A DNA stretch of 64,000 nt, taken from Escherichia phage FL23. Where the stretch lies: sequence record PP400787; one strand, written 5' to 3'. The stretch's first letter is position 1. Every line of letters begins with the position of its first letter. The notes below the pieces were generated by a model. It was not told the DNA's origin. It did no database searches and was given only the letters and a program-made list of their open reading frames with translations. The position numbers and the translations under genes are program-made. Of this stretch, positions 1,777-58,379 are shown in pieces.

Positions 1777-2553
1777 TTATACTCTTGGACCATATATTGC
1801 TCCAACATTTATCCACGTTGGAGCAGACCCTATAACAGCATAACCAGCAGCGCCGCCATTATATTCAGATCCTTGACCGCGAATATTGCATCTACCTCCC
1901 GCGGAACCTACTTCACCACCGTTTCCGCCGTTATAGATACCATTCACGGATCCTGAGCCAGGTGCAGAAATAGTACCACCAGTCGCGCCTGATTGCATAT
2001 CAATAGATCCGCCTGGCGCACCAAAAGGACGACCGCCACCGCCGCCAAAGGTCAATCTCATTTGTGAAAAAGGAGAATAATATCCGCCGCCACCGCCGCC
2101 GCCACCGCCTGCAATAGCTCCACCATTATTAATTCTTAGTCTCCCACCAATATCGTTTTGAATACAATGACCTCCAGCTGAGCCAGGACTATTGCTACCG
2201 CCATTCCCGCCACGACCATACATCGTTACGCCGTGTATATTTAACTGAACATATTCATTCGGTGTATCTCCGTACATGAAGAATAAAGGAACATCTTTAG
2301 AATATGATACTAAATCTCCAGTGATATTAAACACTATAGGTGCACTACCTGCCTCAAAACATCTATCTCGGAACCATTGACCATTGAAGTTATGGTCTGC
2401 TCCAAGCGTGTGAATTACTTCAACAGATCGACCTATCATATTACTCATCCAAAATGGAATTCCCATTCTCAATCTCTGCGCGGCACCACCCATCCAAGGG
2501 TCTCCAGTTTGTACCCTCGCAGACCATCCTACCCACGGTCCTTCAACTGCCAT
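1777..2553 (-). CDS. 38: gp38 receptor-recognising adhesin, glycine-rich (T2/T6 type rather than the T4 assembly-chaperone type)
   Basis: Poly-Gly tracts ([23 protein letters not shown]) typical of gp38 adhesin glycine-rich motifs; start at second ATG (2553) preceded by GGAGG; ORF track start 2583 probably too far upstream. Confidence 0.8.
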
Positions 2554-2565
2554 ATAAACCTCCAA

Positions 2566-2579
2566 GGGGCCGAAGCCCC
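2566..2579 (-). other. GGGGCUUCGGCCCC tetraloop hairpin in the 37/38 intercistronic region, immediately 5' of the gene 38 SD
   Basis: Plus strand ggggccgaagcccc; 5-bp GC stem with UUCG loop on the minus-strand mRNA. Confidence 0.7.
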
Positions 2580-2584
2580 TCATT

Positions 2585-5500
2585 TTATTTTAACAATGAT
2601 TTGACTAATTTTTTAAGCTCTTCAATCTCTGACTTAAGTTCCGCAATTTCTGTAGTATGTTCATTTATTGCAGCTGTATTTAAACCAATTACACCGTTAT
2701 AGTTCAAACGAAGTAAAGCTTCGCCATCAGGGTCACCTTCAACTAATTCTGGTAAAATAGCTTGAACTTCTTGGGCTATCAAACCGGCGTTAGGTTCCCA
2801 TTTCTGATTGCCTTCTTCGTCCGTTCCACGTTTCTGCATATAAGTGTAACCGTTAATTTTAGAAAGCTTCTGAGAAGCATTTTCAAATTTAACAAGGTCT
2901 TTTTTAACACGAATATCAGAACGGACATAAACATCACGGACAAACGTTGAATAACTATCATTTGCCTGAACGAGATGCCCATGAGAAACGATAGCTCTTC
3001 CAACTTCTGTCCAAAAAGCACCGGTTGAATCCCAAAGCCCAGGATGAGATTGATAGCCTGCTCCCCAGTTTGCAATATGTACACCATTGGCAACCATGTT
3101 AATTCGCCCATCACCACCATGAACTAATCCGGTATCATTATCACCAATAACAAGACATGGTCCAGTCCACGCCGGGTCACCACCGCCAGCCGATAATCTT
3201 GCTCCGGCTTTAACCATGTCAGGAACGTACATGTTTCCATTATAGTGGAATTCGAAGATAGCTTGTGGGTCGGAACCGTTTTCCTGATTACCTACACGAA
3301 TAATACCTTGTGCCCAGTTATTAGGAATGCGTCGCATACCAAAATCAACACCAGATACGTATCCTTCATTCGTAATAACAGATTTTCCTTTGATAATTGG
3401 ATAATAACTATCATTACCGACGTAGCCAAAATCCACAAATATCGGAGCTTCCTGGCGCCATTGATTTCCCCAATCGCCGGCCTGGTGACTGGTCCAGACA
3501 GAGCCATTAATAAAAAGTCGGTCCCTATTAAAATTAAAAGTGGCAGACCCTTCCGGGTTTAAAGCAATATCACCACCATTATTAACATATATGCCTGATC
3601 TATTTTGGAAACTATAAAACGATATGGCATTATCAGCACCACCATTACCTACATACCAGTTATCAACGCCTGCTTTTTGTCCTTTCAAATAGCCAGATTC
3701 GGTTGCCGCGCTATTAATAACGATGGCATCAGAGTTTGCATTAAGAGTTAAGCGACCTGTCAGCGTATCGCCTTCTTTTGAAACACGGCTATAGACAGCA
3801 CCAAGAAGATTGGTTATATCACCGGAAGAATTAAACGTTTTCCAGATATCAGACCAGATGTTACCATTGCGACCAATAGTAGCTTCACCACCACCAACCT
3901 GGACATTATCAGGGAAGTTAACAGTACCGTCTTGATTAAAACGAGACGTATGGCCTTGTGATCCATCTTCTTTCAGATGATGAATAACGAATGTACCCGA
4001 ATTAATTTCAGTACCTAAAGACCAAACGGCTTTACCGTTTAAAAACTTCTGTTTAACAATAGGATAATATTTGCTTACAGCATCATCATCGATTTCCTGG
4101 AAAATAGGAGCCGCTTGAACATATTGAATATCATAACCACCAGCGCCTGCGCCATGACCAGTAAATTTAATATAGCCGTTTGCTGCGAACGTATTGTAAC
4201 TTGATTGTAAATCTGGAATAGTAACTTTACCAGTATCTAAAGCCATACTAAACGGGCGAAGTGGACCGATATCACCATTTTTACCTTCACCATAAGCAGT
4301 TGGAATAATATGAAGACTTCCTTCTGAACGTCTAAAAATAGCTCCATAATCTGCATTCCAAATGCGAAGAGCATTCACTGCTCCAGATGAAATTTCGCCT
4401 GTTGTGTGAACTCCCCTATTTCCAGCAGTAACACCAGATGATTCAAATGAACCGTTAACGTTCATTTCTACTTCACCTGTTGTAAGTCTTTGAATATAGC
4501 TCATCCAACTAGTTGCATCAGAAATTTCCATGACATTTTTACGATTACCTACACTAGGATTAGTAAACGTATTACCCCAAACAGAAATTGTCATATTATC
4601 AACTGAACTACTACCAGTTGTGTTACCTCTAAACAACAGTGTAGAAGCATTATTTATACCATCGATATTAACAGAACCACCAATAACGTCAATATTACCA
4701 GGAGTAACTAACAAACCGCCATGAGTATTAATGTTTGTAGTACCCTTACCACGGAAATAGTGATGATAATTACCGCCTTGATAATATCCTAAAAGAGTCT
4801 GACCATCTCCAAACGCGTTATTATCGTGGTATGTCACTACAGTAGCAAGAGCATAATTTTCAGTTGGAGGAGTAGTTAAATCGGTTCCGTTAGTAGAATA
4901 TCCAGCTACAAATTTTCTTAGGCTAGTTGTTTCGCTTGGACTAAATAAAAACGTTTTTGTGCCATTGTTAACACTGAAATAATATCCGTCTTGATGCCAT
5001 TTAAATCCAGTATCATTATCTCCTAAAGCAATTGAGGACGTTCCTAATTCAGAATATCCTTTAGGGCCGCCTGGGGTGCCTATAGAAATAGAATGACCCG
5101 CTTTCAATCCACCGGACCATGTAAACGACCAAAGATAAGCGTCAAGTCCATCACCTGCATACCAAGTTATCCCATCATTGTCTTTAACCTCATGAAAAAT
5201 ACCTGCACCTACGGCATTACGCATGACACGAAGATGATTAATAGCAGTAGTGCTTTCAGATAATGGGGTGTTATTTGCTAATGAATAGATATCATAATCT
5301 CCTGCCTTCTTCCCGTTTGTAATAACTTTGTCGGTCAGAATTTGTGGAGACGAAATAGATTTCCATGCTGATACTTCAGGTGAAGTAAATAGGCCACTGC
5401 CTGAAAATGCATAAGTGCTTTCGCTACCAGCGGCGTAGTCTTGAACCCTGATATTAAGTACTTGTGTAGTTAAACCATCATTAGCCGGGGAATAAATGAT

Positions 5501-6595: not shown

Positions 6596-6618
6596 AAAAA
6601 GGGAACCCGAAGGCTCCC
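6596..6618 (-). terminator. hairpin GGGAGCCUUCGGGUUCCC plus U-run after gene 35
   Basis: Plus strand aaaaagggaacccgaaggctccc; stem with one G-U wobble, UUCG loop. Confidence 0.6.
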
Positions 6619-6623
6619 TCAAT

Positions 6624-13883: not shown

Positions 13884-13884
13884 T

Positions 13885-13908
13885 TGCTTATTATAAATAG
13901 ATTATAAT
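13885..13908 (+). promoter_or_regulatory. gene 32 promoters: MotA-box-like TGCTTAT, late TATAAATA (13893-13900) and TATAAT
   Basis: ttgcttattataaatagattataat. Confidence 0.5.
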
Positions 13909-13912
13909 TATC

Positions 13913-13982
13913 TCACTGACCAGCTATGAGGTCATACATCGTCATAGCACCAACTGTTAATTAAATTAAAAAGGAAATAAAA
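13913..13982 (+). promoter_or_regulatory. gene 32 translational operator: pseudoknot plus AU-rich unstructured gp32-binding leader
   Basis: ctcactgaccagctatgaggtcatacatcgtcatagcac followed by aactgttaattaaattaaaaaggaaataaaa and then the ATG. Confidence 0.75.
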
Positions 13983-15265: not shown

Positions 15266-15308
15266 TTATCAAGGGGCTATTAAGCCCCTATCAAAATGAG
15301 GAAACGTA

Positions 15309-26618: not shown

Positions 26619-26622
26619 GGAG

Positions 26623-26644
26623 TGGGCCGCAAGGCCCATTTTAT
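26623..26644 (+). terminator. terminator-like hairpin after nrdB
   Basis: gggcc-gcaa-ggccc followed by attttatt. Confidence 0.6.
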
Positions 26645-35091: not shown

Positions 35092-35095
35092 GTTG

Positions 35096-35126
35096 AGGAC
35101 TCCTTCGGGAGTCCTTTTTTATTTTC
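35096..35126 (+). terminator. rho-independent terminator (UUCG loop)
   Basis: aggactcc-ttcg-ggagtcct followed by ttttttatttt. Confidence 0.85.
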
Positions 35127-35601: not shown

Positions 35602-35967
35602 ATGAACTACATTAACTTTGAACGTAAATATGTTTCTAATGGTATTGCAGGTTCTATTGATACCATCTGCCTTTGGAAACATCAAAATGGATCAGTATGC
35701 GAAATCGAACAGTATATGACTCCTAACTACGTTTATATGCGATTTGAAAACGGTATCACGGTTTCAATCACGATGGAAGGTTCCAACTTTAAAATCGCTC
35801 TGGATGATGATTTCCGTCAACGTGATTTAGGGACTCATCCTTGCTGGAATGGTGCTAATCGTAAACTCTTAGTTAAAACTTGGATTCGTCATATTCTGAG
35901 TAACAAAGCTAAACCTGAGCACTTGGAAGCAATCTTTGATGTAGTTCTTAACGAATTTGATATTTAA
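35602..35967 (+). CDS. hypothetical protein (121 aa)
   Basis: ATG 35602 with GGAGAA SD; ORF track TTG 35590 rejected. Confidence 0.5.
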   Translation: MNYINFERKYVSNGIAGSIDTICLWKHQNGSVCEIEQYMTPNYVYMRFENGITVSITMEGSNFKIALDDDFRQRDLGTHPCWNGANRKLLVKTWIRHILSNKAKPEHLEAIFDVVLNEFDI

Positions 35968-35977
35968 AATAAATGAG

Positions 35978-35991
35978 GGGCTTCGGCCCCT
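35978..35991 (+). other. GGGGCUUCGGCCCC tetraloop hairpin between a stop codon and the next SD
   Basis: taaatgaggggcttcggcccctattgaggaaaatattatg. Confidence 0.7.
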
Positions 35992-36006
35992 ATTGAGGAA
36001 AATATT

Positions 36007-36294
36007 ATGTTTATGACTACTTATTTTGATACCCGCAAAAATTTCTGTGAAGTTGTTTTCTCAAAGGCACCTAAAGACCTTCCTGCACATTTGCAACCTA
36101 CTAGCGAATCGATTAAAAACTACGTTGATGTGGTTTGTCCTTTAGAGTTCCGTACTGTAAATGGGCGTGATACTTTAGCTATCACTAAACTCAATCGCGA
36201 AATTGACATTGACCCTTCAATTGCGCGCGAAATTAATATCTCTGATATTGGCGGCGGTAATGTTAAATCGCACGGTTTTCAGATGAGGTTCTAA
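36007..36294 (+). CDS. hypothetical protein (95 aa)
   Basis: ORF with GAGGA SD. Confidence 0.5.
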   Translation: MFMTTYFDTRKNFCEVVFSKAPKDLPAHLQPTSESIKNYVDVVCPLEFRTVNGRDTLAITKLNREIDIDPSIAREINISDIGGGNVKSHGFQMRF

Positions 36295-39707: not shown

Positions 39708-39892
39708 AAGCTTACTTAGAAACAATTGTCGTGGCTCAAAAAGAAGGTGGAGATGTTTCTACTTCTGTATCACAAATCATGATTGAATTTATAGATGCAT
39801 ACGCTTATAATAAATTCACAGAAACATTTGATGCCTATGAAAAAGGTCCAAAGTTTGAAATATATCGTACTCTCTTACCACTAGATTATTAA
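39704..39892 (+). CDS. hypothetical protein (62 aa)
   Basis: ATGA overlap with ligase stop. Confidence 0.4.
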   Translation: MKAYLETIVVAQKEGGDVSTSVSQIMIEFIDAYAYNKFTETFDAYEKGPKFEIYRTLLPLDY

Positions 39893-39913
39893 AGGCCTTC
39901 GGGCCTTTAATTT
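39891..39913 (+). terminator. rho-independent terminator (UUCG loop)
   Basis: aaaggcc-ttcg-ggccttt followed by aatttt. Confidence 0.75.
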
Positions 39914-39921
39914 TATAAATA
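39914..39921 (+). promoter_or_regulatory. late promoter TATAAATA for alt
   Basis: ttttataaatag, about 20 nt upstream of the alt ATG. Confidence 0.6.
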
Positions 39922-42035: not shown

Positions 42036-42422
42036 ATGGAACTTATTACAGAATTATTTGACGGCGCTTCGGCGCCGGTTGTTAACTTAAATCCTAAGCA
42101 TAAAATACCACAAATTTTTGCTATCCAAGCCGGCGAAGAAAGCGTGCTTCCTGGATTTAGATTTTGTACATATACCTCTGGTGGTGATACAAATAAAAAC
42201 GTTAAGCCAGGCGATAAAATGATGCATATCGTAATGATAGGCGTCAACGAGAAATTATCGCTGGTTAAGCTTAGAAACTTGGGTGGAAATCCAATTGGCG
42301 TCATTAATGCGGTTTTTGATACTGCTCTTCAAACAATGAAGCAGTATAAAATTGACGCATGCCTATTCCGCGTACTAAAAAGTTCAAAATGTAGTTTACA
42401 AGTCCCTCGTGTTGTGTTATAG
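42036..42422 (+). CDS. truncated Alt N-terminal paralog (128 aa)
   Basis: MELITELFDG...LPGFRFCTYTSGGDTN...MMHIV...KQYKIDAC parallels Alt residues 1-125; ORF ends inside repeat copy B. Confidence 0.55.
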   Translation: MELITELFDGASAPVVNLNPKHKIPQIFAIQAGEESVLPGFRFCTYTSGGDTNKNVKPGDKMMHIVMIGVNEKLSLVKLRNLGGNPIGVINAVFDTALQTMKQYKIDACLFRVLKSSKCSLQVPRVVL

Positions 42423-49063: not shown

Positions 49064-49690
49064 ATGTATGAATACAAATTTGATGTGAGAGTTGGTTCTA
49101 AAATAATCAATTGTCGCGCATTCACGCTTAAAGAATATCTAGAACTTATTACTGCCAAAAATAATGGTTCCGTAGAAGTAATTGTTAAAAAGCTAATCAA
49201 AGACTGCACAAATGCAAAAGATTTAAACCGTCAAGAATCAGAACTATTGTTAATTCATTTATGGGCACATTCTCTCGGTGAAGTTAATCACGAAAACTCC
49301 TGGAAGTGCACCTGTGGAACTGAAATACCAACCCATATAAATCTATTACATACACAAATAGATGCACCAGAAGACCTCTGGTATACACTAGGTGACATTA
49401 AAATTAAATTCCGATACCCTAAAATTTTTGATGATAAAAATATAGCCCACATGATAGTATCATGCATAGAAACGATTCATGCTAACGGGGAAAGCATTCC
49501 AGTTGAAGACTTAAATGAAAAAGAACTGGAAGATTTATACTCTATCATCACAGAGTCAGATATTGTAGCTATAAAAGATATGCTTTTAAAGCCTACTGTT
49601 TATTTGGCTGTTCCAATTAAGTGTCCAGAGTGTGGAAAAACTCACGCTCATGTAATAAGAGGACTCAAAGAATTCTTTGAGTTACTATAA
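49064..49690 (+). CDS. 26: gp26 baseplate hub subunit
   Basis: 208 aa. Confidence 0.85.
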
Positions 49691-50568: not shown

Positions 50569-50795
50569 TGAGATATAGCATTGATGACGCTTTTAATTAT
50601 GAAGAAGAATTTGAAACTGAGATTCAATTCTTAATGAAAAAGTATAATCTTAAGCGTCAGGATATTCGTATCCTGGCCGATCACCCGTGCGGTGAAGATG
50701 TCCTTTATATTAAAGGAAAATTTGCCGGATATCTTGATGAATATTTTTATTCTAAAGATATGGGCATTGATATGCATATGAGAGATATGGGGTAA
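50568..50795 (+). CDS. hypothetical protein (75 aa)
   Basis: ATGA overlap with uvsY stop. Confidence 0.5.
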   Translation: MRYSIDDAFNYEEEFETEIQFLMKKYNLKRQDIRILADHPCGEDVLYIKGKFAGYLDEYFYSKDMGIDMHMRDMG

Positions 50796-50797
50796 AT

Positions 50798-50890
50798 ATG
50801 ACAAATTATAAAGAAGTATTTAGACTTTTAGCAGAAATGGAAGCATGTTTAAAGCGTGTACAAGAAATGCGTTTTAAGATGGGGTTATAA
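50798..50890 (+). CDS. 30-aa small ORF (MTNYKEVFRLLAEMEACLKRVQEMRFKMGL)
   Basis: Tightly coupled to upstream ORF; below ORF-track cutoff. Confidence 0.3.
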   Translation: MTNYKEVFRLLAEMEACLKRVQEMRFKMGL

Positions 50891-50922
50891 ATAGATATAT
50901 ATATAATTCAGAGGAGACAATC

Positions 50923-51090
50923 ATGTCAGATAAGATTTGTGTTGTCTGTAAAACTCCAATCGATTCTGCATTGGTTGTTGAAACAGACAAAGGTCCTGTA
51001 CATCCTGGGCCTTGCTATAATTACATTAAAGAACTACCAGTTTCAGAAAGTTCGGAAGAACAATTAAATGAAACACAACTTTTGCTATAG
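50923..51090 (+). CDS. 55-aa CxxC...PC small protein (zinc-ribbon-like)
   Basis: GAGGAG SD; MSDKICVVCKTPIDS...HPGPCYNY. Confidence 0.4.
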   Translation: MSDKICVVCKTPIDSALVVETDKGPVHPGPCYNYIKELPVSESSEEQLNETQLLL

Positions 51091-51106
51091 TGTGACCTTT
51101 AGTCTA

Positions 51107-51136
51107 TAGTTTTGGCCCTTCCTTTTTGGTTGGGCC
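51107..51136 (+). terminator. terminator-like hairpin plus T-run
   Basis: ggccc...gggcc followed by ttttttaattt. Confidence 0.45.
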
Positions 51137-51145
51137 TTTTTTAAT

Positions 51146-51376
51146 TTAAAAGCTTTCTTCTACTTCATCGTCTGAATCTTCTAATTCAGCTCTTTTTCCT
51201 GCCAAAGCATCTCTCACAGAGATGTCATCAGTATCTTTTAATTCAGTTTCTTTAACTCTTTTCTTATAATAAGCTTCAAGTTCTTCTAAACCTTCTAATG
51301 TTTGACAAGAGGCAATTTTACCCATAAATTCATCAATAGAAGCTTCATAAAGAAATTGTTTAAATTCTAGTAACAT
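51146..51376 (-). CDS. uvsW.1: UvsW.1 (76 aa, acidic C-terminus)
   Basis: ATG at 51376 with GGAG SD; ORF track TTG start 51388 rejected. Confidence 0.65.
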   Translation of the reverse strand: MLLEFKQFLYEASIDEFMGKIASCQTLEGLEELEAYYKKRVKETELKDTDDISVRDALAGKRAELEDSDDEVEESF

Positions 51377-51387
51377 CTTTTTCTCCA

Positions 51388-51403
51388 AAGGGCCGAAGCC
51401 CTT
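51388..51403 (-). other. AAGGGCUUCGGCCCUU hairpin between the uvsW stop and the uvsW.1 SD
   Basis: Plus strand aagggccgaagccctt. Confidence 0.6.
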
Positions 51404-52910
51404 ATAAATTAACTGTTTTCATTACGTAATTAAATTTTTCATCTGCGTAGCGCTGAATACGATCAATGCCGTGTTTTAAAAGATAGTTCAAATGAACGTA
51501 TTTCTTTTTCGTATTAGCAGATTTTGGCTTGACGCCTGCGTCATCTATAAGATCCCAGACTGTTGCAATTGTTTTAGAACCATGTTTACGTAATACGCGA
51601 CCTATTGTTTGCAATACAATAATTTTAGATTTAACACCGTGTGCTAAAACAACGTGATGCAGATTTTTAACTGAAATACCAGTAGAAAATACACCATAAC
51701 TAGCTACTATAATTATTCCTTTACCGTTTTCAGCTAAGGTTTTCATTATATTGCGGGTTTCGGTATCAACTTCCCCTGATACGTAATAAACTTTATCGTA
51801 TTCATTTTTAATTAAATCGAAAATAGCTTTACCGTGCGATACGTGTTTAAACATGACAAAAGCGTTTTCATCTTTTTGTGCAAGCTTAATAGCCAATTTA
51901 GCGATCCATTTATTTCTTTTACTAAGCCCCGTAATAATTTTTATTTCTTCTTGATAAGTTTTTCCCTTTAATTTAGTAGTGAACTCATCGGGATAGCGAA
52001 GAAAAATACTATTAATTTTTAGCTCAGTTACTTGTCCATCTTCCATTAACTTAGAAGTCGTTACTGGCTTAAATATTTCACCAAACATTCCAACATACTG
52101 CATGATATTGGCTTTGCCATCACGTAATGAACCAGACAAACCGAATTTGAACATGCAGTTATTTAAACCTGATATGATAGATGAAATACTTTTTCCTGTA
52201 GCAAGATGACATTCATCATTCATCATCATTCCAAACTGTGAGAACCATTCTTTCGGTTGTTTTACTACAGTTTGCCATGTACCAACAACGACTGGTGCAT
52301 CATTTTTATATTTATCATCTTTTGATGCTCCGCCACCAATTTTCTTTATCATTGCATGACTGAATAAACGATAGTCAACGAAGTCATCAGCCATCTGAGT
52401 TGTCAGAGCAGTTGTTGGAACAATGATAAGAATTTTACCTTCATAATTTTCCAAATAATATCGCGCAAGCAAAGCTTGAATTAACGATTTACCAGCGGAT
52501 GTTGGAAGATTAAGAATTCTACGACGATTAACTAATCCTTCGAACACTGCATCTTTTTGATACCAGTGTGGTTCAATTCTTTTATTTCCTGAATAGATTT
52601 CTAATTTAGAAAGCCATTCATCAAAATCTTTTCTTGATAATTCTTCTTTTTCGTTAATTTGTGGGTCAATCCAGGCTTTATAGCCAAAGTTATCACAGAA
52701 CTTTTTAATTTGCCCGACTAAGCCGAATGGAAGAAGACGATTATAATCTAACAGACGGATTCGTCCATCCCAGTTGCCATATCTGAAGCGAGGGTTAAAT
52801 CTATATCCATCGGCCTCAAACGAAAAGAAATCTCTTAATTCGTGGAACGTGCTCTCTTCACAATCGATGCGTACATGACTGAAGTCGTGAAAATGTACTT
52901 TAATATCCAT
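51402..52910 (-). CDS. uvsW: UvsW SF2 helicase
   Basis: 502 aa; Walker A PTSAGKS; DECH box. Confidence 0.9.
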   Translation of the reverse strand: MDIKVHFHDFSHVRIDCEESTFHELRDFFSFEADGYRFNPRFRYGNWDGRIRLLDYNRLLPFGLVGQIKKFCDNFGYKAWIDPQINEKEELSRKDFDEWLSKLEIYSGNKRIEPHWYQKDAVFEGLVNRRRILNLPTSAGKSLIQALLARYYLENYEGKILIIVPTTALTTQMADDFVDYRLFSHAMIKKIGGGASKDDKYKNDAPVVVGTWQTVVKQPKEWFSQFGMMMNDECHLATGKSISSIISGLNNCMFKFGLSGSLRDGKANIMQYVGMFGEIFKPVTTSKLMEDGQVTELKINSIFLRYPDEFTTKLKGKTYQEEIKIITGLSKRNKWIAKLAIKLAQKDENAFVMFKHVSHGKAIFDLIKNEYDKVYYVSGEVDTETRNIMKTLAENGKGIIIVASYGVFSTGISVKNLHHVVLAHGVKSKIIVLQTIGRVLRKHGSKTIATVWDLIDDAGVKPKSANTKKKYVHLNYLLKHGIDRIQRYADEKFNYVMKTVNL

Positions 52911-55400: not shown

Positions 55401-55406
55401 TCATAA

Positions 55407-55431
55407 GGGGCTTCGGCCCCTTTCTTCATTT
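55407..55431 (+). terminator. rho-independent terminator (UUCG loop) after hoc
   Basis: ggggc-ttcg-gcccc followed by tttcttcatttt. Confidence 0.8.
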
Positions 55432-58296: not shown

Positions 58297-58323
58297 TGCG
58301 CTTTCCTTTTGGTTTATATGATT

Positions 58324-58331
58324 TATTTATA
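58324..58331 (-). promoter_or_regulatory. late promoter TATAAATA for gene 24
   Basis: Plus strand tatttata. Confidence 0.6.
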
Positions 58332-58335
58332 CCAT

Positions 58336-58364
58336 AAAAACAACTAAAGGGACCCGAAGGTCCC
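58336..58364 (-). terminator. terminator after gene 23 (GGGACCUUCGGGUCCC plus U-run)
   Basis: Plus strand aaaaacaactaaagggacccgaaggtccc. Confidence 0.8.
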
Positions 58365-58379
58365 TTAAATCGTCAAAGA

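Follow-up and report, generated by a model that had tools for sequence, protein, structure and literature searches.

It was in the T4 family to which the hairpins analysed here belong that the cUUCGg tetraloop was first seen to be exceptionally stable. Intercistronic hairpins that stabilise mRNA are said to include the REP elements of E. coli malE-malF, attributed to Newbury et al. in 1987, and the stem-loops of the Rhodobacter puf operon, attributed to Belasco, Klug and Cohen. Passages of PMC8948821 describe CUUCGG hairpins as abundant in the intergenic regions of T4 and link them to several processes, including RNA stability (Tuerk 1988, Gorski 1985). According to a part of PMC3014915, T4 gene 38 has a split ribosome-binding site, in which a hairpin shortens the distance between SD and AUG from 22 to 5 nt (Nivinskas et al. 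1999). PeSLs, which are composites of a terminator and an early promoter, are located in the hyperplastic regions of T4-like phages (PMC2839356, PMC4122927).

In this study, we analysed a window of 64,000 nt from Escherichia phage FL23 (PP400787), in which three GC-clamped UUCG hairpins are located between the stop codon of one gene and the SD of the next. These three sites, together with a fourth in the frd.3/frd.2 gap, fall into a known T4 class, the intercistronic hairpins of C(UUCG)G type, which was described in 1988. As to their role, we give about an even chance to the proposal that each hairpin acts in the sense RNA to favour the upstream cistron, either as a block to 3' exonucleases or as a leaky attenuator.

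Hairpins at three stop-SD junctions

The window belongs to a T4-like myovirus (Tequatrovirus), as indicated by a 2-kb piece showing 100% identity to Escherichia phage FL44 and approximately 97% identity to T4. Its plus strand corresponds to the minus strand of T4 and aligned with T4T from 161,980 down to 100,866, the gene 37/38 segment being divergent, and gene names were transferred from the annotated T4T record. Eight GC-clamped UUCG hairpins (stem of at least 5 bp with at least four G-C pairs) were detected in the window, compared with 0.01 expected per shuffle, and UUCG was by far the most frequent tetraloop on GC-clamped stems. Together with a copy between genes 35 and 36 that contains a G-U pair, these make up nine GC-rich UUCG hairpins, and in all of these (9/9) the sense strand of the neighbouring genes had UUCG, never CGAA. 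The 12-mer GGGCTTCGGCCC occurred four times, at 2567-2578(-), 35978-35989(+), 51390-51401(-) and 55408-55419(+), and was absent from 100 dinucleotide shuffles. An Rfam scan of the whole 64-kb window gave no family at gathering score.

The initial annotation had placed the same GC-clamped UUCG hairpin in three intercistronic gaps, directly 5' of the downstream SD. Direct reading and a pattern search confirmed the three sites, and a gap of 1-3 nt between hairpin and SD was found at each of them. The 14-mer GGGGCTTCGGCCCC was located at 2566-2579(-), as annotated, and at 35977-35990(+), where the annotated position, 35978-35991, was off by one. The hairpins started 0-8 nt past the stop codon, and the spacing between SD and AUG was 5-7 nt (Table 1). 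The 16-mer stem-loops had a predicted energy of approximately -11 kcal/mol (nearest-neighbour prediction) and were present in both the MFE and the centroid folds of 58-nt contexts. The frd.3/frd.2 site, overlooked in the initial annotation, has the same design and the same stem with a hexaloop, and is followed by the SD GAGGAAA without a T-run.

Table 1. Positions in the FL23 window of the junction hairpins, of the junctions themselves and of the terminator-type copies
Feature	Position	Strand	Context
Hairpin AGGGGC-UUCG-GCCCCU	35976-35991 (core 14-mer 35977-35990)	+	Gap between early genes 30.7 and 30.6
30.7/30.6 junction	35965-36009	+	TAA 35965-35967, 8 nt, hairpin, AUU, SD GAGGA 35995-35999, 7 nt, AUG 36007-36009
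Hairpin AGGGGC-UUCG-GCCCCU	2565-2580 (core 2566-2579)	-	Gap from distal tail-fibre gene 37 to T2-type adhesin gene 38
37/38 junction	2551-2587	-	TAA 2587-2585, 4 nt, hairpin, U, SD GGAGG 2563-2559, 5 nt, AUG 2553-2551
Hairpin AAGGGC-UUCG-GCCCUU	51388-51403	-	uvsW/uvsW.1 gap; stem base overlaps uvsW stop 51404-51402
uvsW/uvsW.1 junction	51374-51404	-	TAA 51404-51402, hairpin, U, SD GGAG 51386-51383, 6 nt, AUG 51376-51374
Fourth site of the same design, AGGGGC-UAUUAA-GCCCCU	15272-15289	+	frd.3/frd.2 gap
Terminator-type copy AAGGGGC-UUCG-GCCCCUU, T-rich tail	55405-55422	+	After hoc; tail score 3.41
UUCG hairpin and UUUUAUUUU, terminator	35095-35116	+	After gene 30.9; tail score 5.08; annotated terminator in phage Lutter
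UUCG hairpin, T-rich tail	39888-39911	+	Upstream of alt; followed by late-promoter consensus TATAAATA at 39914-39921
UUCG hairpin, T-rich tail	58347-58366	-	Downstream of major capsid gene 23
UUCG hairpin (one G-U pair) and T-run	6599-6620	-	Genes 35/36; followed by late promoter TATAAATA at 6592-6585

Termination and read-through at the junctions

The weighted sense T-tail score at the three sites was 2.25-2.42, equal to the window background of 2.29 (sd 0.67), and none of the three junction hairpins was called in a terminator scan of the sense strand. In comparison, the terminators of the window scored 3.2-5.8. The initial annotation had thus rightly described the three sites as lacking a U-tract and as other than canonical intrinsic terminators. 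It had also called several copies with U-tracts terminators; these scored 3.2-5.1, in agreement with that reading, and the copy at 35095-35116 is annotated accordingly in phage Lutter. A GC-rich UUCG hairpin should therefore not always be annotated as a terminator.

The late-promoter consensus TATAAATA was found neither between 4651 and the start of gene 38 nor between uvsW and uvsW.1, and since genes 38 and uvsW.1 have no such consensus of their own, read-through of the hairpin is required. Between 30.7 and 30.6, no promoter is annotated in phage Lutter, and genes 30.8 to 30.4 fall into a single temporal class in the published T4 omics data, as far as Tables S2/S4 of PMC9697503 are concerned. 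On sequence grounds, full termination at the three sites would be excluded. No sense-strand terminator was found after uvsW.1, so the hairpin is the one strong structure that uvsW RNA has on its 3' side.

We also considered, and set aside, an adjacent promoter whose transcript would begin with the hairpin. A -10-like TAAAAT is located 6-7 nt upstream at two sites, but matches to the -35 element and the MotA box were poor, a late consensus was lacking, and phage Lutter has no promoter annotated there. On the plus strand beside 35976-35991, no promoter-like site was found. On the minus strand beside 2565-2580, the sole promoter-like match was weak (9/12) and inside the codons of gene 37, and none is annotated in phage Lutter.

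Partial termination requires separate consideration. A hairpin followed by 1-3 U might stop a fraction of the polymerases, resulting in attenuation and not in RNA stabilisation. The stem is indeed always followed by 1-3 U, and identical hairpins with T-runs are terminators elsewhere in the window. Moreover, many stop-hairpin-start copies of other phages carry 3-4 U displaced by 2-3 nt (among the matches listed), so that some of those copies may be leaky terminators. At the window sites, however, the sense tails were at background and escaped the scan, the purine-rich SD interrupts the U-tract at once, and the downstream genes have no promoter consensus of their own, so termination could be partial at most. 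We consider leaky intrinsic termination unlikely as the explanation of the three sites.

The opposite strand offers another possibility, namely that the hairpins terminate antisense transcription and so keep early-mode transcription out of late genes, or the reverse. On the opposite strand, CAUUUUAUUUU or CAUUUAUUUU comes after two of the hairpins, and the scan called 2565-2580(+) and 35991-35976(-) terminator-like. In the relatives, the antisense tails averaged 3.2-3.3, close to 3.22, the 90th percentile of background values across the window. The corresponding tails in the window, however, were 2.64 and 2.78, within 1 sd of the baseline set by the A-rich surroundings of stop codons (2.61, sd 0.79), and an antisense T-run was lacking from the uvsW copy (2.14) and likewise from the T4 37/38 copy (2.32). 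In addition, it is only as sense RNA that the loops are of the special UUCG and GAAA kinds, and the bias in orientation across phages strongly favours the sense strand. These observations make antisense termination highly improbable, and our preferred reading remains that of an element acting in the sense RNA.

Conservation and rearrangement in relatives

The 30.7/30.6 hairpin was present at the same place in all 13 IMG/VR relatives and in T4T. Its stem changes from AGGGGC/GCCCCU to GGAGGC/GCCUCC in relatives, which involves two double-compensated pairs, and its loop varies among UUCG, UUUG, UUCA and GAAA, the last being found in three phages. GAAA represents the other classic class of extra-stable tetraloops. 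Among relatives with a T2-type gene 38, all 13 (13/13) carried a G-C hairpin in the 37/38 gap, its stem separated from GGAG by 0-5 nt, and the hairpin was kept even where the C-terminus of gp37 was of another type. Its variants included the stems GGGGC, GGGCC and GGGGGC, and the loops UUCG, UUAG, CUCG, AUU and AAC. The distinct variants were aligned with the stems anchored on the loop by a script and fitted by hand to the structure; in this alignment, 97% of the cells were paired and four pairs were changed on both sides, a result matched by none of 500 shuffles. The compensatory stem changes and the UUCG-to-GAAA loop swaps indicate selection on RNA structure, and the pattern points to the structure of the sense-strand RNA, not the sequence, as its target.

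In contrast to these two hairpins, the uvsW/uvsW.1 hairpin was found only in close Tequatrovirus relatives and was absent from eight more distant T4-like phages, in which the uvsW stop codon abuts or overlaps the SD. Judged by this distribution, it is a lineage-specific (Tequatrovirus) insertion of approximately 16 nt. The distant phages without the hairpin indicate that it is not required for the expression or coupling of uvsW.1, and any benefit that it confers would be modest or lineage-specific. The initial annotation had proposed roles other than termination, in mRNA processing or stability or in translational coupling or decoupling. The background T-tails, the read-through and the selection on RNA structure support a role other than termination, but the dispensability of the uvsW hairpin in distant T4-like phages speaks against a need for it in coupling.

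Comparison with T4T showed a base-identical uvsW/uvsW.1 copy and a UUCA loop at 30.7/30.6. At 37/38, T4T carries an identical hairpin despite unrelated flanking genes, with the SD GGAG upstream of the hairpin, giving the order SD-hairpin-AUG. The hairpin thus persists across types of fibre/adhesin cassette, with the SD on opposite sides in T4-type and T2-type gene 38 loci. A small ORF that would start at ATG 2583, in the frame of gene 38, and cross the hairpin was rejected, as its ATG is missing in relatives. In one relative, designated L005, genes 30.8 and 30.7 are deleted, and the hairpin, weakened to 4 bp, remains with gene 30.6; the endpoint of the deletion is at the 5' arm of the hairpin (a single case).

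Such rearrangements raise the question of a function at the level of DNA, in which identical 16-nt hairpins would serve, like PeSLs, as microhomology for deletions and for the exchange of cassettes, namely the tips of gene 37 and the two types of gene 38. At 37/38, 16-17 nt of hairpin are common to T4T and the window while both flanks are unrelated, other 37/38 gaps diverge just upstream of the stem, and the L005 deletion ends at the 5' arm. The 37/38 gap of the window also matches the 30.7/30.6 gap of T4T over 22+7 nt, but the AT-rich flank in common contains stop codons, and chance could account for it. PeSL stem-loops have been proposed as shuffling sites in T4-like phages (PMC4122927); no promoter is attached to the present hairpins, unlike PeSLs. 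The compensatory changes and loop swaps reflect selection on RNA structure and not on DNA identity, and the strong sense-strand bias is unexpected for a DNA element. A recombination linker is therefore a very improbable explanation of these hairpins.

A combination of both functions is a speculative and quite improbable extension. The 37/38 hairpin would then have stayed in place as an anchor in the tail-fibre locus while the fibre tip and the two unrelated kinds of gene 38 were swapped around it, the SD changing sides, and the identical copies scattered in the genome would supply microhomology for ectopic conversion and cassette exchange, so that a stability element doubles as a recombination joint. 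If true, this joint would shape the evolution of host range.

Upstream and downstream genes, and the role of the hairpins

The exact 14-mer GGGGCTTCGGCCCC was detected in at least 120 unrelated viral contigs (IMG/VR), with 124 occurrences among the matches listed. A stop-hairpin-start arrangement without a T-run was observed in 61 of these 124 listed occurrences, and a T-rich tail in 49. An ORF of at least 90 aa ended no more than 35 nt upstream in the UUCG orientation in 99 of the 124 listed occurrences, compared with 16 in the CGAA orientation; coding on both flanks was found for 84 and 6 of them, respectively. With respect to the upstream proteins, major head proteins accounted for 12-13 of 40 non-redundant cases among the matches listed (approximately 10 PHROG families), an enrichment to be read with the caveat that short IMG/VR contigs are themselves enriched in hallmark genes. 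Further upstream proteins among these 40 were tail fibre (two), major tail (one), scaffold (one) and Hsp20 (one). In 16-17 of the 18 cases with an assigned function among the matches listed, the upstream gene encoded a major head or other virion protein, whereas none of the 10 downstream partners examined was a major head protein. The hairpin design therefore tracks a highly expressed upstream gene, which fits an element favouring the upstream message. The window offers a parallel, in that hairpins of this kind come directly after gene 23 (major capsid), hoc and gene 37. The occurrence of the same design after major capsid genes in many unrelated phages, like the persistence of the hairpin across fibre/adhesin cassettes, may bear on how protein ratios are set within long phage transcripts.

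The position of the hairpin 1-3 nt 5' of the SD might instead suggest help for the translation of the downstream gene, for example by insulating the ribosome-binding site from long-range pairing, by giving the 30S subunit a platform for standby or stacking, or by shortening the effective distance between stop codon and SD for re-initiation. A hairpin-to-SD distance of 0-5 nt at the three sites and in all relatives with the hairpin agrees with such help; the very short gaps, however, make this proximity almost unavoidable. In L005, the hairpin stays with 30.6 after the loss of the upstream genes. The window also contains the known split ribosome-binding site of gene 25 (49662-49683), and a similar arrangement is located ahead of denA (26619-26642). 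At the T4 37/38 junction, the hairpin between SD and AUG is needed for efficient translation of gene 38, as stated in a section of PMC3014915. This published role means that one copy, at least, works for the downstream cistron as well. A hairpin located between SD and start, as in a split site, was found in T4T 37/38 but at none of the three window sites. Because the SD of the window is 3' of the 37/38 hairpin, with a spacing of 5 nt, bridging is unnecessary and cannot be the role of the hairpin there.

When the hairpin was deleted in silico, the energy predicted for opening the ribosome-binding site rose or fell by less than approximately 2 kcal/mol and was thus about the same with and without the hairpin. 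Sequestration of the SD by the hairpin was rejected, since the SD was outside the stem in both the MFE and the centroid folds and the opening energies were no higher than with the deletion; unmasking of the ribosome-binding site was rejected as well, no consistent gain being observed in silico. Distant T4-like phages, moreover, express uvsW.1 from an SD overlapping the stop codon, without a hairpin, and what the design goes with in unrelated phages is the kind of gene upstream, one for a major head protein, and not the kind downstream (among the matches listed). As a general role, help for downstream translation is rather unlikely; such help is possible, above all at 37/38.

RegB cleavage was also tried as a common explanation and rejected, as the sole early-gene site, that of 30.6, has UGAGGAAAA and no GGAG/GGAU. 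Late mRNAs are reported to be RegB-resistant, and RegB cleaves GGAG/U in early SDs, according to passages of PMC3014915.

The preferred reading, an element favouring the upstream cistron, would operate as follows. Without a U-tract after the stem, RNA polymerase would mostly read through, and a very stable, self-contained stem-loop just past the stop codon would form a boundary in the polycistronic mRNA. The 3'-to-5' exonucleases PNPase, RNase II and RNase R, entering from downstream ends or cleavage sites, would stall at the hairpin, and a minority of polymerases might also stop there. The message of the upstream cistron (gene 37, 30.7 or uvsW) would thereby outlive or outnumber that of the downstream one. 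The next SD would be close because the genome is compact, the hairpin neither masking nor clearly unmasking it. We infer both the block to exonucleases and the resulting difference in expression. To our knowledge, there is no need for an excess of 30.7 over 30.6 or of uvsW over uvsW.1. For 37/38, the initial annotation had proposed that the hairpin tunes the adhesin relative to the fibre. This is plausible and fits the hairpins following abundant structural genes, and an effect on the gp37:gp38 ratio may plausibly be expected. The decay of T4 mRNA is driven by host 3' exonucleases together with RNase E, as described in part of PMC3014915. In the literature searched, we found no usable maps of T4 transcript 3' ends and no specific function for the U-tract-less copies at the three sites.

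The relation of these hairpins to known systems can be summarized as follows. With PeSLs, they share the repeated occurrence of intergenic stem-loops in T4-like genomes, and they may sometimes mark the boundaries of indels, as in the single L005 deletion and the 37/38 island of identity between T4T and the window; in contrast to PeSLs, they have no promoter attached to them, and late or core regions contain two of the sites. With intrinsic terminators, they share the G-C-rich hairpin, and sister copies with T-runs (hoc, 30.9, gene 23 and 35/36) are terminators; the three sites differ in having no sense U-tract and in the dependence of the downstream genes on read-through. Of the split ribosome-binding sites of T4 genes 38 and 25, that of gene 38 is formed by this very hairpin, at the corresponding 37/38 junction and adjoining the SD, but the order in the window is hairpin-SD-AUG, with a normal 5-nt spacing at the T2-type gene 38, and that in T4 is SD-hairpin-AUG.

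The REP and puf elements reportedly have the architecture observed here, in which a cistron of a polycistronic mRNA is closely followed, on its 3' side, by a stable hairpin that lacks a U-tract. For those elements, a block to 3' exonucleases and higher upstream than downstream expression have been proposed, and the match of the present hairpins is one of architecture, known from sequence. They are also smaller, 16 nt compared with approximately 35 nt or multi-hairpin arrays, and are not a dispersed repeat family of the host. The closest match is to the C(UUCG)G hairpins of T4 (Tuerk et al. 1988, PNAS 85:1364), with which the present hairpins share the C-UUCG-G motif, the G-C-rich arms, the phage group and the intergenic location on the sense strand, and from which they show no essential difference, the frd.3/frd.2 site being a member with a hexaloop.

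Stop-hairpin-SD sites and copies elsewhere

Besides the GC-clamped UUCG copies, the hairpin in the frd.3/frd.2 gap is a fourth stop-hairpin-SD site in the window (see the table for positions). Its stem is as in the UUCG copies, no T-run is present and the SD GAGGAAA comes next, while its loop reads UAUUAA in the window versus UAUCAA in the annotated T4 record (T4T). On the antisense strand of two UUCG copies, 2565-2580(+) and 35976-35991(-), the hairpin is followed by CAUUU(U)AUUUU, and both were flagged as terminator-like in the terminator scan; these tails were ordinary once corrected for the baseline of T-tails next to stop codons in the window. Downstream of alt, the hairpin within the short alt.-1 remnant ORF may be a functional 3' hairpin of the alt mRNA rather than coding sequence.

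Hairpin features identified in the window
Position	Strand	Location	Sequence
15272-15289	+	frd.3/frd.2 gap	AGGGGC-UAUUAA-GCCCCU
26619-26642	+	before denA	GGAG-UGGGCC-GCAA-GGCCCA-UUUUAUU-AUG
42062-42077	+	30-45 nt past alt stop codon	CGGCGC-UUCG-GCGCCG
49662-49683	+	26/25 junction	GACUCAAAGAAUUCUUUGAGUU, preceded by AGAGGA and followed by ACUAUA-AUG
51090-51145	-/+	convergent gap after uvsW.1	GGCCC-(13 nt)-GGGCC

In the relative L005 (positions 380-610), genes 30.8 and 30.7 are absent, and the 30.9 terminator and early promoter are fused to a weakened (4-bp) hairpin copy, which lies immediately 5' of the 30.6 SD. The exact 14-mer GGGGCTTCGGCCCC was also detected in many unrelated phages (at least 120 IMG/VR contigs, L045-L164). 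Among the matches listed, about half of the copies had the stop-hairpin-start arrangement without a T-run, most often directly after the major head protein gene.

The 37/38 junction

The sequence UUAAAAUAAAAUGAGGGGCUUC is common to window positions 2565-2593(-), at the 37/38 junction, and the T4T 30.7/30.6 gap (about 1470-1500 of L001), two unrelated junctions that match over 22 nt, one mismatch and then 7 nt. Other phages carry AAUAAUAAGAGGGGC at 37/38 in place of the version in the window. The match has two candidate origins: ectopic conversion from one hairpin copy to another, or coincidence in a sequence rich in A-T and stop codons. Reading from an ATG at 2583(-) across the hairpin (2551-2583) stays in the frame of gene 38, and the ORF listing accordingly has an ORF of 268 aa here. 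This ATG was not found in relatives at the 37/38 gap and is therefore probably incidental, and it could be a source of gene-caller error.

The uvsW region and breaks in alignment to T4

In both T4T and the window, a stop codon lies at the base of the hairpin between uvsW and uvsW.1. The T4 reference annotation used in PMC9697503 (Table S2) gives uvsW as a single ORF, 112677-114440, crossing the hairpin into uvsW.1; expression tables that rely on this older annotation therefore treat the two genes as one. In the relatives L018 and L021 (520-585), the uvsW 3' end is wholly unlike that of the window until about 18 nt before the hairpin, which may reflect a different C-terminus or the insertion of an element. 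With a T-run on the + strand only, the hairpin in the convergent gap would give a one-way terminator serving uvsY.-2 and not the uvsW unit. A T4T stretch of about 620 bp that lies between genes 59 and 32 (segG) is absent from the window at 13884-13920, and alignment is also broken around segD and segE, near 58311-58369 and 50784-50897.

SD-hairpin-AUG leaders of denA and gene 25

Upstream of denA, whose product begins MKEIAT, 23 nt separate the SD from the AUG, a GNRA hairpin lies within that interval, and the upstream sequence is identical in T4T. Because of this spacing and intervening hairpin, the denA leader looks like a split ribosome-binding site (SD-hairpin-AUG) of the gene 38 or gene 25 type. 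The hairpin at the 26/25 junction matches the split ribosome-binding site of gene 25 described in published work.
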